In this document: positions 47,583-53,487 of the stretch, in pieces
How positions within the stretch are numbered: position 1 is the stretch's first letter
How the letters are laid out: the number at the start of each line of letters is the position of its first letter
Assembly: GCA_036399155.1 (NCBI GenBank)
Contig: DASWNR010000065.1
Coordinates: 1 to 61,407 of the forward strand
Origin: Pyrinomonadaceae bacterium
Lineage (GTDB): Bacteria; Acidobacteriota; Blastocatellia; Pyrinomonadales; Pyrinomonadaceae
Direction of reading: 5' to 3'
Length of the DNA stretch: 61,407 nt
Notes under the pieces: model-generated
Seen by the model: the letters and a program-made list of their open reading frames with translations, nothing else
What the model was told of the DNA's origin: nothing
The model's database searches: none
Translations under genes and position numbers: made by a program

Positions 47583-49016
47583 ATGTCCGAGATCACAAAA
47601 GTCTTTCTCAGCTCGACCGCCAGAGACCTGTCGGATTACAGGGAGGCGGTCTACCGCGCCGTTCAGCAGATGGACGGATACAAGTGCGTCCGCATGGAGG
47701 ACTTCCTCTCGCGCGCCGCCTCGCCCATCGACCAGTGCCGCAGGGCGGTCGGCGAGTGCGACCTCTTCGTCGGCATCGTCGGCCCGCTGCACGGCAGCAG
47801 CCCGCCGGGCAGCGCCTCGTCCTTCACCGAGCTGGAGTACCACGCGGCGCACGACTACAACAAGCCGCGCCTGATGTTCCTCACCCCGCCGAAGTTCCAC
47901 GTCGAGGCCGACATGATAGAGGCGGACGACAAGCGCGAGCGGCAGGCGAAGTTCCGCCGCCTCGTGTTTGACACCAACGCCGCCGGGAGCCCCTTCGCCA
48001 CGCCGGAGGAGCTGGCGCGGCTCGTCGTCACGTCGGTCAGGAACTGGGAGAGCGCGGCGGCGACCGAGCGGAAGCGGACGCCGCCCAACCCGAGCGCCAA
48101 CGTCCCGCGCACGTGCGACCGCGAACACCAAGAGGCCGCCTTCGCCAGATACCTGCGCCTCGCCGGCGACTACCGCCCCGGCCTACCGCTCGTCTGCGTC
48201 GTGCGCGGCGAGGAGGGGCAGAACCACTGGAGCTTCGTCCGGCGGCTCTGCGAGACGCGGATTCAGACCTACGCGACTGAGCGGTCGGGCGAGAAGGGCG
48301 CGAAGGTCAAGCGGATCGACCTCGGCTGGCAATACTCGGACGACCTACAGTCGCGGCAGGACGCGCTGACCTCCACGCTCTTCGAGGCGCTCGACCCCGA
48401 CTACGTCGTCAAGCGCTCGGACTACTCGGCGGCGGCGCTACGCGGGCTGCTCGGGGGTTCGCTCTGCTCCGTCGTCGTCTTCCAGCATGAGGTGCACGCG
48501 CAGCTCTGGGACAGGACTTCCGAGTCGCTGCTGCGCTGGTACCTCGGATTCCTCGACGGGTTGAAGGCCGAGCCGCCGGTGCCGCAGTGCGTCGTCTTCA
48601 TCAACTTCGTCTACCCGGACGCGCGACGCGACGGGCTGTGGGCCTTCTGGCGCAGACTCCGGCGGGCCAGCCCCTTCGGGCTCAGCCGGCGCGTCGAGCG
48701 CTCGCTGCGCGGAATCGCCGCCGCGCCCGAGCGGGCGGTCGAGCCCAAGCGCGCGAAGGAGCCGGCGCGTGCGCTGGCGGCGGCGCCCGCGCACGCTGCC
48801 TGCGCGGTGCTCGACGAGCTGACCTGCGTCGAGAAGAAGCACGTGACGAAGTGGCTGCGCGACAACCACGTCAGCGACGACGAGGCCGAGATAGAGCGGG
48901 CGGCCGTCGTCATCCTGACGGACAAGCAGGGGCGGCAGTACAAGTGCCGCAACATGCGCGAGGTCGAGTCGTCGCTGAGGAACATCCACACACGGATCGT
49001 GAGCGAGGTGGCATGA
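47583..49016 (+). CDS. DUF4062 (TIR-/nucleoside-deoxyribosyltransferase-like) domain protein with degenerate STAND-like C-terminal region
   Basis: The N-terminus KVFLSSTARDLSDYREAVYRAV...CDLFVGIVGPLHGS...SFTELEYHAAHDYNKPRLMFL matches the DUF4062 pattern. From about residue 160, CDREHQEAAFARYL...PLVCVVRGEEGQNHWSFVRRL occupies the place of a P-loop but has no GxxxxGK[ST]. Confidence 0.7.
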   Translation: MSEITKVFLSSTARDLSDYREAVYRAVQQMDGYKCVRMEDFLSRAASPIDQCRRAVGECDLFVGIVGPLHGSSPPGSASSFTELEYHAAHDYNKPRLMFLTPPKFHVEADMIEADDKRERQAKFRRLVFDTNAAGSPFATPEELARLVVTSVRNWESAAATERKRTPPNPSANVPRTCDREHQEAAFARYLRLAGDYRPGLPLVCVVRGEEGQNHWSFVRRLCETRIQTYATERSGEKGAKVKRIDLGWQYSDDLQSRQDALTSTLFEALDPDYVVKRSDYSAAALRGLLGGSLCSVVVFQHEVHAQLWDRTSESLLRWYLGFLDGLKAEPPVPQCVVFINFVYPDARRDGLWAFWRRLRRASPFGLSRRVERSLRGIAAAPERAVEPKRAKEPARALAAAPAHAACAVLDELTCVEKKHVTKWLRDNHVSDDEAEIERAAVVILTDKQGRQYKCRNMREVESSLRNIHTRIVSEVA

Positions 49017-50026
49017 CGCAAGAGACAGACTTTCTCTACTATGCGGGCGACGGGACGAGGGCGACGGACGGCGCGCGGCGGCTGCCCGACTACGAGCGGC
49101 TCGTCCCGCCCGACGACCCCGGCGGGTACCGCGCCGAGCTGGGGCTGGTCAACGCCGTCAACGCCGCGCTGATGCTCGGCCAGCCGCTGCTCGTGACGGG
49201 CGAGCCCGGCACGGGCAAGACCCAGCTGGCGCGCAGCGTCGCACACGAGCTGGGACTGCCCGAGCCGCTCACATTCAACACGAAGACCACCTCGACCGCC
49301 AGAGACCTCTTCTACCGCTACGACTCGCTCGCGCACTTCCACGACGCGCAGTTCCGCAAGGGCGGCGACGGCGGGCGTGAAGCGCTCGACGTGGAGAAAT
49401 ACATCACCTACGAGGCGCTCGGCCGCGCCATCCTCCTGGCGATGTCGCCGAAGGAGGCCGACCCGTTCCTGCCGCCGGAGCAGAGGGGCATGGGGCCCGT
49501 GCGCTCGGTCGTGCTCATCGACGAGATAGACAAGGCCCCGCGCGACCTGCCCAACGACGTGCTCAACGAGATCGTGAGCATGTCCTTCACCGTCCGGGAG
49601 ACCGGGCGCACCTTCTCTGCGCCGGGGCGCTACAGGCCCATCGTCATCCTGACCAGCAACGCCGAGAAGAACCTCCCCGAGCCGCTGCTACGCCGCTGCG
49701 TCTTCTACTACATCAAATTCCCCGACGACGACTCCGCGCGGCTCGCCGAGATCGTCCGCAGCCGTCTGGGCGAAGGGGACGGCGGGCTGAGCGGCGATAT
49801 GCTGAGCCACGCGCTGACACACTTCCTCGAAATCAGGACCAACAAGCAGCTGAGGAAGCCGCCCGCGACCGCGGAACTGCTGGCGTGGCTGCGCGTCCTC
49901 GGCAAGAGGGGCATCGACGCGGGCAACCCCTCGCATGCCGCGGCACTGGCCTCGACCTACCCCGTGCTACTCAAGTACAAAGATGACCTCGACGCGCAGG
50001 CGGCGCGGCGACAAGCTCCGGCATGA
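49013..50026 (+). CDS. MoxR-like AAA+ ATPase (AAA_5/AAA_3 type)
   Basis: Walker A LLVTGEPGTGKTQLAR, Walker B SVVLIDEIDKAPRDLPNDVLNEI, sensor region IVILTSNAEKNLPEPLLRRC. The start ATG overlaps the upstream stop (ATGA). The 142 upstream codons of the ORF track were rejected. Confidence 0.85.
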   Translation: MTQETDFLYYAGDGTRATDGARRLPDYERLVPPDDPGGYRAELGLVNAVNAALMLGQPLLVTGEPGTGKTQLARSVAHELGLPEPLTFNTKTTSTARDLFYRYDSLAHFHDAQFRKGGDGGREALDVEKYITYEALGRAILLAMSPKEADPFLPPEQRGMGPVRSVVLIDEIDKAPRDLPNDVLNEIVSMSFTVRETGRTFSAPGRYRPIVILTSNAEKNLPEPLLRRCVFYYIKFPDDDSARLAEIVRSRLGEGDGGLSGDMLSHALTHFLEIRTNKQLRKPPATAELLAWLRVLGKRGIDAGNPSHAAALASTYPVLLKYKDDLDAQAARRQAPA

Positions 50027-53000: not shown

Positions 53001-53487
53001 GGTGTGCGAGCGACCTCAGGGCGTGACCCTGAAGTCGCTCGCCGTGACCTTCCTCACCACGAACAACAGCAAGAATAGGGGGGACGTGGTGAGCATCCGC
53101 CTGCTCGCGAACGGCCGCGAAGTCGGGAGAGTTAACTCCGCCGGCGCCGGTCAGGAGTGGCCGAAGAATTCCACGCACACCTTCAACATCGACCTCGGGG
53201 ACGTCGTCCTCCCCGTCAAGGAATGCAGCGGGCTGGTGCTCGTCGTCAGCAAGAGCAGCACCGTCGGCGCGCGCCGGGGCCGCCCGCCCTTCGTCAACGC
53301 GTCCCTGCAAGACACTTCGGCGGGACGCCCGCAGCGGCAGGCTAACCAGTGGGATGTGCGCGTGTCGGCGGTGGTGAGGCTGTCAGACGGGCGGGAGTCC
53401 ACACTGCTCGCCAGAACCCCAATCATCAAGCTCGGCGAGGAGAACCCGAACTCGGTCAGCATCCCCATTGCCTGCCCCTCCCCCTGA
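50023..53487 (+). CDS. three-pass membrane protein: cytoplasmic CoxE-like vWA region with degenerate MIDAS, two Asn-rich spacers, extracytoplasmic Ig/PKD-like C-terminal domains
   Basis: TM segments at about residues 126-149, 232-254 and 681-703, with KRK/RR clusters on the side of the 255-680 region. [52 protein letters not shown]...[12 protein letters not shown] parallels the CoxE-type vWA layout but lacks DxSGS. C-terminal [19 protein letters not shown] is PKD/Ig-like. The start overlaps the MoxR stop (ATGA). Confidence 0.7.
52188..52223 (+). repeat. perfect hexanucleotide microsatellite (GAACAC)x6 inside the membrane-protein gene
   Basis: gaacac repeated six times without interruption. 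It encodes (NT)n within the [23 protein letters not shown] spacer just outside TM3. Confidence 0.95.

Follow-up and report, generated by a model that had tools for sequence, protein, structure and literature searches.

A membrane-anchored iSTAND MoxR-vWA gene trio with a predicted NADase head in a Pyrinomonadaceae bacterium: a candidate conflict system

Three overlapping genes in the genome of a Pyrinomonadaceae bacterium raise the question of what a TIR-like head on a degenerate STAND body, a MoxR ATPase and a membrane-spanning vWA-like protein accomplish together. The genes (genes 1 to 3, the trio) lie at positions 47,583 to 53,487 of contig DASWNR010000065.1 (assembly GCA_036399155.1), and the window refers to the whole 61,407-nucleotide stretch of this contig that was analysed. 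A first-pass annotation, made from the letters alone, had connected the trio with nucleoside triphosphate (NTP)-dependent conflict systems proposed computationally by the Aravind group in 2020 and had added that the architecture was not recognised as a named system. The connection holds and the addition does not, as the trio matches the iSTAND ternary system named in that work (PMC7159879). It is very likely that the trio is a membrane-anchored representative of the iSTAND class among MoxR-vWA ternary systems. The best explanation of the trio as a whole, with a probability of about 0.6, is that of a membrane-anchored iSTAND MoxR-vWA conflict system, for which an envelope-to-NADase switch is tentatively proposed, NADase denoting an enzyme that hydrolyses NAD+.

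The iSTAND class was described by Kaur, Burroughs, Iyer and Aravind (eLife 2020; PMC7159879) as the second (vWA-MoxR subsystem 2) of four MoxR-vWA 'ternary' systems. Its components are an iSTAND protein whose N-terminal heads are of the TIR/DRHyd, peptidase or EAD type, a MoxR protein, and a vWA protein with a CoxE-type 4-helical N-domain (PMC7159879). Transmembrane (TM) segments are found in ~28% of the systems, and peptidoglycan-associating C-termini preceded by TM segments place a subset at the membrane and cell wall (PMC7159879). The trio has the same order of roles, a nucleotide-acting head, a MoxR protein without VMAP-type extensions and the CoxE-type 4-helix N-domain, as well as the TM segments and the variable, TM-preceded, envelope-facing C-terminus that characterise part of the class. 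Its family is also spread over cyanobacteria, Bacteroidota and former deltaproteobacteria. The head of gene 1 corresponds to Pfam DUF4062, and its equivalence to the DRHyd of the 2020 study is assumed. In contrast to the systems of that study, the clade of the trio is concentrated in Acidobacteriota, which were not singled out there, it lacks the serines of the metal-ion-dependent adhesion site (MIDAS) and has a variable Asp at strand 4, and the tail of the trio, a PKD-like module followed by a beta-rich region without family match, is not among the domains listed. The architecture, including its membrane-anchored form, is already described, and no new principle is established. Specific to this locus are the DUF4062 head, which can now be read as an NADase, the tail without a recognisable family, the degenerate MIDAS of the clade, and a fixed chromosomal site occupied by fast-evolving modules.

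The three genes are encoded on the same strand and are joined by ATGA start/stop overlaps at both junctions (49013-49016 and 50023-50026), and both downstream proteins begin with MTQ, all as first annotated. Third-position GC is high in all three open reading frames (ORFs), as in real genes (the window is 68% GC). An identical 10-mer had also been reported at the junctions. The repeat is real and is an 11-mer, GGCATGACGCA, located at 49010-49020 and 50020-50030; the two closest relatives do not share it, so only the ATGA overlap itself is taken as meaningful, and a functional role for the repeat was given no weight. The proposal that the genes form a single operon is borne out by homologous loci. 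A word-indexed search returned 48 close homologues of the gene 3 core, an exhaustive profile search of 1.84 billion representatives yielded 4,353 matching clusters (50% identity), and a scan of GTDB species genomes gave 181 confirmed gene 3 matches, of which 80 loci were kept for analysis. These 80 loci belong to Acidobacteriota (Blastocatellia, Pyrinomonadaceae, Bryobacterales, Thermoanaerobaculia), Gemmatimonadota, Desulfobacterales, Saprospiraceae and other Bacteroidota, Nostoc, Trichodesmium, Okeania and a relative of Beggiatoa. A homologue of gene 2 lies directly upstream of the gene 3 homologue in 59/68 loci with enough upstream DNA, and the ORF that precedes MoxR carries the Pfam iSTAND domain in 56/58, which upholds the expectation that the trio would be conserved as neighbours. 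The iSTAND and MoxR genes overlap by 4 nt in 29/44 loci, and the spacers between MoxR and vWA genes are mostly 0-20 nt. The identical gene order in dozens of genomes indicates that the trio is more than a chance arrangement.

The ends of the system are exchanged between loci. At least 10 different heads occur on the iSTAND genes, among them DUF4062 (15), TIR_2 (13), protein kinase (8) and EAD11 (3), with one or two each of trypsin, CHAT, SIR2, caspase and EAD9. The tails of the gene 3 homologues are mostly periplasmic or cell-wall modules and include TonB_C, CarboxypepD_reg, PASTA, FGE-sulfatase, TPR, WD40, OmpA, PG_binding_1, SLT, CHAP, PKD and Lactamase_B. The trio is a tightly coupled unit that is co-inherited across phyla, with heads and tails swapped from one locus to another. 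Members of the gene 3 family are seldom found on plasmids (6 of 72,556 records) and are absent from phage records. The RefSeq names of the plasmid matches (H1-H6) follow the C-terminal domain (SUMF1/EgtB/PvdO family, O-antigen polymerase, pentapeptide repeat, GUN4 domain), and the conserved CoxE-like core of ~690 aa in gene 3 homologues is missed by routine annotation.

Gene 1 was anticipated to carry a DUF4062 head on a dead STAND body, and Pfam matches to both DUF4062 and iSTAND agree with this assignment (Table 1). Three preprints of 2026 identify DUF4062 as a TIR-like NADase that works in defence against phages (Swarozyc; NIR in Avs2, Vulcan and Vesta; Evangelion). DUF4062 proteins have NADase activity and mediate Glu-dependent phage defence (10.64898/2026.05.01.722283; 10.64898/2026.09.04.749371), and the three preprints make no mention of iSTAND, MoxR or vWA partners. 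In a phmmer alignment, E83 of gene 1 pairs with the Glu of the SFTE motif in the solved KpSwz DUF4062 (10wc_A); by count of alignment positions, this Glu is E97 of the E97A mutant of KpSwz, which is inactive (2026 DUF4062 preprints). The DUF4062 head of gene 1 is a predicted TIR-like NADase in which the catalytic Glu is kept. The known systems with this head and conserved Glu (Swarozyc, Avs2-NIR, Vulcan, Vesta, Evangelion) respond to a sensed phage by depleting NAD+, and such depletion is the likely output of gene 1. Unlike the trio, these are cytoplasmic one- or two-gene systems that rely on active STAND, HEAT, alkaline phosphatase or AUX sensors and lack iSTAND, MoxR, vWA and any membrane part. 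Column statistics over 58 syntenic homologues of the STAND body give a Walker-A-equivalent consensus of HGxExxxH[DE]S with no conserved Lys, in contrast to the GxxGxGK[ST] of active STAND NTPases, and GK[ST] is absent from all 58. The Walker-B-equivalent strand, VVVFQHEVH in gene 1, lacks a conserved acidic pair and has His in place of Asp/Glu, and no acidic Walker B is conserved over the 58 homologues. Judged by these motifs, the STAND body of gene 1 is an NTPase-dead scaffold.

Gene 2 scores above the Pfam cut-offs for AAA (7.6e-10) and AAA_5 (3.8e-8; 33.9 bits vs a cut-off of 22), and it is homologous to a protein encoded in a carbon monoxide (CO) dehydrogenase cluster. Specifically, gene 2 shares 27% identity over 269 aa (BLASTP, E 1e-19) with CoxD of Afipia carboxidovorans, the MoxR-family ATPase of the CO dehydrogenase cluster of plasmid pHCG3. 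The NCBIfam model 'MadB family AAA-type ATPase' gives a partial match of 70.6 bits, below its cut-off of 475, and no paper could be traced behind this name. Gene 2 is apparently an active CoxD-like MoxR AAA+ ATPase. Both of its Walker motifs are intact, as had been noted.

Gene 3 was first read as a three-TM, CoxE-like vWA-type protein with a degenerate MIDAS, and hydropathy, profile and structural comparisons support this description, with the vWA fold likely but not proven. The N-terminal domain matches the CoxE family profile in hhalign with a probability of 92.3% (E 5.5e-7; E 6e-7 with a second profile), and AlphaFold2 (AF2) places helices at residues 11-21, 28-44, 65-76 and 80-102. Homology of this domain to the CoxE N-domain is well supported. 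An inserted TM hairpin separates the 4-helix domain from the vWA-like domain. Lys and Arg are enriched after TM2, where six such residues occur, and before TM3, which indicates that residues 1-120 and 256-678 are cytoplasmic and that the loop at 150-229 and everything after residue 703 lie outside. By prediction, gene 3 therefore has three TM helices and an external C-terminus, a topology that also draws on four conserved Cys in the ectodomain. The AF2 model of residues 1-730 has predicted local distance difference test (pLDDT) values above 90 over 270-650, and the domain-only model of residues 280-478 (pLDDT 90.5) shows the beta-alpha order of a vWA domain. The best Protein Data Bank (PDB) match of the alpha/beta domain in two Foldseek runs is NorD (E 2e-3 and 4.4e-4; probability 0.99-1.0), which forms the vWA component of NorQ/NorD, itself a MoxR-vWA complex. 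The hhalign alignment to the CoxE vWA domain is colinear motif by motif through strands 1, 4 and 5 despite its weak score, with gene 3/CoxE pairs RLDvpaTV/RRIDLRRTI, LVLID341RAS/VVLLD233ASGSM, LLVFGD407GEG/MIVSD327GYDTG and ALLTP/AWLNP. In most members of the gene 3 family, the same pair of colinear segments is recovered by a CoxE hidden Markov model (HMM). Of the profile matches that had been forecast, DUF4062 and AAA_5 were obtained and VWA_CoxE was matched in just 5/50 distant gene 3 relatives (best E 6e-5); the sequence profiles A1 and A2 of gene 3 returned only noise against the PDB. Taken together, gene 3 is a divergent CoxE-type protein.

The MIDAS-equivalent site of gene 3 reads D341-R-A-S-P, with strand 1 ending in D341 and strand 4 in D407 (LLVFGDGEG). 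The strand-1 position is D in 36 and E in 6 of 44 homologues. The all-helical domain that follows is strongly conserved in the family and has no PDB or Pfam match. A weak Death_3 match within it occurs in this protein only and in none of 49 relatives, and was set aside as probable noise.

Beyond TM3, gene 3 continues into a stalk and an ectodomain. Its composition confirms the two Asn-rich spacers that had been noted on the outer side (21 N in 83 aa and 29 N in 86 aa). Asn-rich stretches of gene 3 recur at 50481-50652, and slippage in the (ACGAAC)x8.3 repeat of the stalk would alter stalk length without a frameshift. The Ig-like module announced for this tail is supported by concordant matches, all below their cut-offs, to K319L-like_PKD (7.9e-5), Big_9 (4.4e-4), PKD_4 (2e-3) and also PKD. 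The C-terminal region (~885-1154, ~270 residues) has no Pfam match; it shares 46% identity with its counterpart in P0002 and 33% with the protein of L004, the nearest relative (BLASTP), and its four Cys are invariant in the two relatives that have the region. A homologue search with the ectodomain alone returned no matches, not even its own protein, and is an unreliable negative. Acidobacteriota are diderm. A domain behind an inner-membrane TM helix would thus be periplasmic, judging from these nearest relatives, and the description of the domain as surface-exposed was overstated.

Table 1. Coordinates of the trio, its domains and motifs, and the upstream features (positions in the window)
Feature	Position	Strand	Description and basis
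Sigma-70-like promoter match	45702-45730		TTGCCA-17-TATAAT; sole such match in 45.4-53.8 kb; upstream of SpoVK/CbbX-type gene
SpoVK/CbbX/EccA-type AAA+ ATPase	45979-47436	+	TIGR02881, E 4.7e-90; uncharacterised N-terminal region of ~200 aa; 146 bp upstream of trio
Gene 1	47583-49016	+	477 aa; DUF4062 head, iSTAND body and ~140-aa C-terminal region without family match; ORF
DUF4062 domain (residues 6-89)	47598-47849	+	Pfam PF13271, E 1.3e-19, 70.5 bits vs cut-off 24.7
Predicted catalytic Glu E83, within SFTELEY	47829-47831	+	Codon GAG; phmmer alignment to KpSwz DUF4062
iSTAND domain (residues 176-336)	48108-48590	+	Pfam PF19995, E 6.9e-11, 43.2 bits vs cut-off 24
Walker-A-equivalent G209-EEGQNHW-S217	48207-48233	+	Without GK[ST] motif
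Gene 2	49013-50026	+	337 aa, N-terminus MTQ; CoxD-like MoxR-clade AAA+ ATPase; ORF
Walker A GEPGTGKT (residues 63-70)	49199-49222	+	Direct reading and alignment to CoxD
Walker B VVLIDE (residues 166-171)	49508-49525	+	Direct reading and alignment to CoxD
Gene 3	50023-53487	+	1154 aa, N-terminus MTQ; three-TM CoxE-type vWA-like membrane protein with periplasmic C-terminal region; ORF, homologues, AF2 models
N-terminal 4-helix domain (residues 8-99)	50044-50319	+	Cytoplasmic; hhalign to CoxE family, AF2
TM hairpin: TM1 (~125-147), Asn-rich external loop (150-229), TM2 (231-254)	50395-50784	+	Hydropathy, K/R counts, AF2 helices 125-144 and 231-261
Alpha/beta (Rossmannoid, vWA-like) domain (residues 297-470)	50911-51432	+	Cytoplasmic; AF2, Foldseek, hhalign, HMMs
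All-helical domain (residues 495-660)	51505-52002	+	Cytoplasmic; AF2 pLDDT above 90, strong conservation in family
Death_3 weak Pfam match (residues 598-638)	51814-51936	+	E 0.03
TM3 (~residues 680-703)	52060-52131	+	Hydropathy; AF2 helix 678-699
Asn/Thr-rich low-complexity stalk	52141-52407	+	Periplasmic; composition
In-frame hexanucleotide repeat (ACGAAC)x8.3	52174-52223	+	Tandem Repeats Finder; inside gene 3, encodes (Asn-Thr)n part of stalk
PKD/Ig-like module (~residues 795-875)	52408-52647	+	DPDGD motif; concordant Pfam matches below cut-offs
Beta-rich C-terminal region (~residues 885-1154)	52675-53484	+	BLASTP to relatives; no family match

Comparison with the nearest relative, L004, shows that the parts of the trio evolve at very different rates. 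The flanking genes share 84-95% identity with those of L004, and identity falls to 69% in the cytoplasmic core of gene 3, 67% in MoxR, 54% in the DUF4062 head, 42% in the iSTAND body and 33% in the gene 3 ectodomain, the lowest value of all parts. This steep fall inside the trio points to a vertically placed cassette that nevertheless diverges, or is exchanged, much more quickly than its surroundings. The putative sensor parts are the fastest-evolving ones. The SpoVK/CbbX-type AAA+ gene upstream of the trio is 84% identical to its L004 copy, resembling the housekeeping flanks and unlike the trio. It was considered as a fourth core part and rejected; it is present in L004 but absent from L001, another relative, and from all other loci searched. 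Co-transcription of this gene with the trio is possible, because the sole promoter-like site precedes it.

The window genes assigned outside the trio are all housekeeping genes (pyruvate:ferredoxin oxidoreductase, NAD synthase, hydantoinase, tricorn-like protease, acyl-CoA dehydrogenase, 2-oxoacid dehydrogenase E1 and others). On the reverse strand, at 8361-9602, an ARPP-1 domain gene (PF20208, 'ARG and Rhodanese-Phosphatase-superfamily-associated Protein', E 1.8e-64) lies close to the NAD synthase gene (10388-12127), and Pfam gives no match for the adjoining genes at 7145-8290 and 5896-6264. An association of the trio with other defence genes had been envisaged. Among ten homologous loci with Pfam-annotated neighbours, about half have housekeeping neighbours only, and the remaining loci adjoin conflict or mobile genes (kinase-TIR-NTPase; SIR2_2, Mrr_cat and AAA_15/21; caspase and CHAT; transposases); the association is thus seen in some of these loci, and not in the window.

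Several homologous loci have features of their own. In L001, the orthologous iSTAND gene lacks the DUF4062 head, and in a further relative the trio is near the gene cluster that adjoins it in the window but has a kinase head and a TonB_C tail. In the P0041 locus (JGI 3300041965), two adjacent genes encode the TIR_2 head and the iSTAND body separately, and the surroundings of the trio resemble a defence island, with AAA_15/AAA_21, SIR2_2, another DUF4062 protein and Mrr_cat. In a Blastocatellia metagenome-assembled genome (L002, contig_750, 11722-14196), a trio with a kinase-headed iSTAND gene is followed immediately by a gene that combines protein kinase, TIR_2 and an AAA_35 NTPase, and then by two large genes without family match; the kinase/TIR_2/AAA_35 gene may be an accessory effector. 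Four of the genomes behind the 80 loci have two copies of the gene 3 family on separate contigs (L009/L012, L019/L068, L036/L043 and L051/L058), which fits a published remark on the coexistence of paralogous systems within a single organism.

A role of the trio in conflict or defence is probable, and the way in which its parts may be wired can be described in outline. In the resting state, the vWA-like protein would keep the iSTAND-NADase inactive at the inner membrane face. The variable ectodomain would then register an event in the periplasm or envelope, for example a phage that adsorbs or penetrates, damage to the cell wall or a foreign ligand, and the signal would pass the membrane to the cytoplasmic vWA-like and helical domains. 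Next, the MoxR hexamer would spend ATP to remodel or release the vWA-iSTAND complex, serving as a threshold-setting switch. Finally, the freed or oligomerised DUF4062 heads would hydrolyse NAD+, and growth arrest or death of the affected cell would result. The tail of gene 3 shows no enzymatic signature and evolves faster than any other part, which favours a sensor role for it. The outside-in order of these events is tentative. The stronger proposal, in which the trio is a true transmembrane outside-in immune receptor whose fast-evolving ectodomain senses phage or envelope breach before or without genome entry and acts through a MoxR gate on a cytoplasmic NADase, is rather unlikely.

A number of observations weigh against the conflict-system reading or against details of its mechanism. 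No experimental study of any iSTAND ternary system was found in the literature, and the original authors propose the reverse flow, in which iSTAND is the cytoplasmic sensor and the vWA tail the effector (PMC7159879). The models of PADLOC-DB v2, from which a match might have been hoped for, give none for genes 1 and 3 and only P-loop-level matches for gene 2. No defence island is present among the window genes assigned outside the trio. Additionally, two relatives have the trio at an identical chromosomal site, with the acyl-CoA dehydrogenase, TPR and E1 genes again coming after it. Structure comparison of the cytoplasmic region, which was to settle its fold, places NorD first among Rossmannoid folds, with a template-modelling score (TM-score) of just 0.36-0.41 and generic Rossmannoid folds next, and the hhalign match of the alpha/beta domain to the CoxE vWA domain is weak (E 1.6e-3, probability 16%). 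In the MIDAS-equivalent site, the DxSxS serines are absent, with A at the first position in 25/44 homologues and F, P or Y at the second, and the strand-4 Asp is found in just 17/44, with N in 16. The absence of the serines and the variability of the strand-4 Asp make canonical metal-mediated peptide capture doubtful.

The main alternative uses the same parts with the opposite direction of signalling. According to the model of Kaur et al. (PMC7159879), iSTAND would sense a cytoplasmic invader and MoxR would act on the vWA protein, the periplasmic domain being an envelope effector or anchor and DUF4062 supplying a parallel NAD+-derived signal or depletion. This opposite wiring agrees with the position of the iSTAND body among the fastest-evolving parts (42% vs 84-95% in the flanks), as expected of a sensor, and with the enzymatic cell-wall domains (SLT, CHAP, Lactamase_B) on some homologous tails. 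However, the tail of this gene 3 consists of a PKD-like module and a beta-rich region without enzymatic signature, it diverges even faster (33%) than iSTAND, homologous tails are mostly binding modules (TonB_C, PASTA, OmpA, TPR, WD40, CarboxypepD_reg), and the sole evident killing activity, the predicted NADase, is cytoplasmic. The model of Kaur et al. is unlikely for this locus, and the data do not choose between outside-in and opposite wiring. The variable vWA C-terminal domain was proposed as the antigen sensor by Dore et al. 2023 (10.1101/2023.09.22.558884), with some of these domains predicted to be periplasmic. Their VMAP-type MoxR-vWA systems, with C-type-lectin sensors diversified by diversity-generating retroelements, share with the trio the MoxR-vWA core and the variable vWA C-terminal domain. 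In contrast to the trio, their third component is VMAP rather than iSTAND, the tail here is not CLec/FGE, and no reverse-transcriptase family was seen among the window genes scanned with Pfam.

Readings in which the trio does not act against phages were also weighed. The trio could serve surveillance of envelope integrity or of cell-cell (kin or aggregate) contacts, coupled to programmed death in surface-attached or aggregating bacteria, with the periplasmic domain reading peptidoglycan, the outer membrane or signals from neighbours. The iSTAND systems are enriched in organisms of multicellular habit (77/103, P 3.9e-24; PMC7159879), the taxa found here include Acidobacteriota, Nostoc and Trichodesmium, Saprospiraceae, Desulfobacterales and a Beggiatoa relative, the site of the trio is stable amid housekeeping genes in three relatives, and the family is rare on plasmids and unseen in phage records. 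Such a role is nonetheless improbable, as the DUF4062 proteins tested so far all act in phage defence, some homologous trios adjoin SIR2_2, Mrr_cat, AAA_15/21 or caspase/CHAT genes, and fast evolution with swapping of heads and tails is typical of host-parasite conflict. The similarity of gene 2 to CoxD, of the gene 3 N-domain to CoxE and of the alpha/beta domain to NorD, its best structural match, would also suit a housekeeping chaperone like CoxD/CoxE in CO dehydrogenase maturation or NorQ/NorD in nitric oxide reductase maturation, which would assemble or insert a cofactor into a membrane or periplasmic protein with gene 1 as an accessory adaptor, and the flanks are metabolic (acyl-CoA dehydrogenase, 2-oxoacid dehydrogenase E1). 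Unlike those systems, the trio has no client enzyme gene and has a TM hairpin, a periplasmic tail, a degenerate MIDAS and an effector-bearing iSTAND gene. No cox or nor genes are present among the window genes scanned with Pfam, and no client enzyme is co-conserved, as the neighbours vary by locus. Furthermore, the heads of the iSTAND gene are interchangeable (NADase, TIR, kinase, caspase or SIR2), and the trio diverges several-fold faster than the adjacent metabolic genes. A maturation chaperone is so poorly compatible with these observations that it was rejected.

The conflict-system reading concerns a class that is large and extends over many phyla (4,353 clusters, 181 GTDB matches), yet for which no experimental test was found in the literature. 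The naming of gene 3 homologues after their tail domain makes these systems effectively invisible in genome annotation. This locus offers a clean, compact example of the class and a quantitative view of a conflict-type cassette that outpaces its flanks several-fold at a fixed site. The idea of a periplasmic sensor in the vWA C-terminal domain was already put forward by Dore et al. 2023 (10.1101/2023.09.22.558884). With DUF4062 now known as an NADase, the variants that carry this head offer a simple NAD+ read-out, which could be used to probe MoxR-vWA as an ATP-dependent immune switch and the periplasmic domains as sensors. If the trio were a true outside-in receptor, it would, to our knowledge, be the first case in which a bacterial defence is shown to combine periplasmic sensing with execution by NAD+ depletion. 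It would also provide the first functional demonstration for any MoxR-vWA ternary system.

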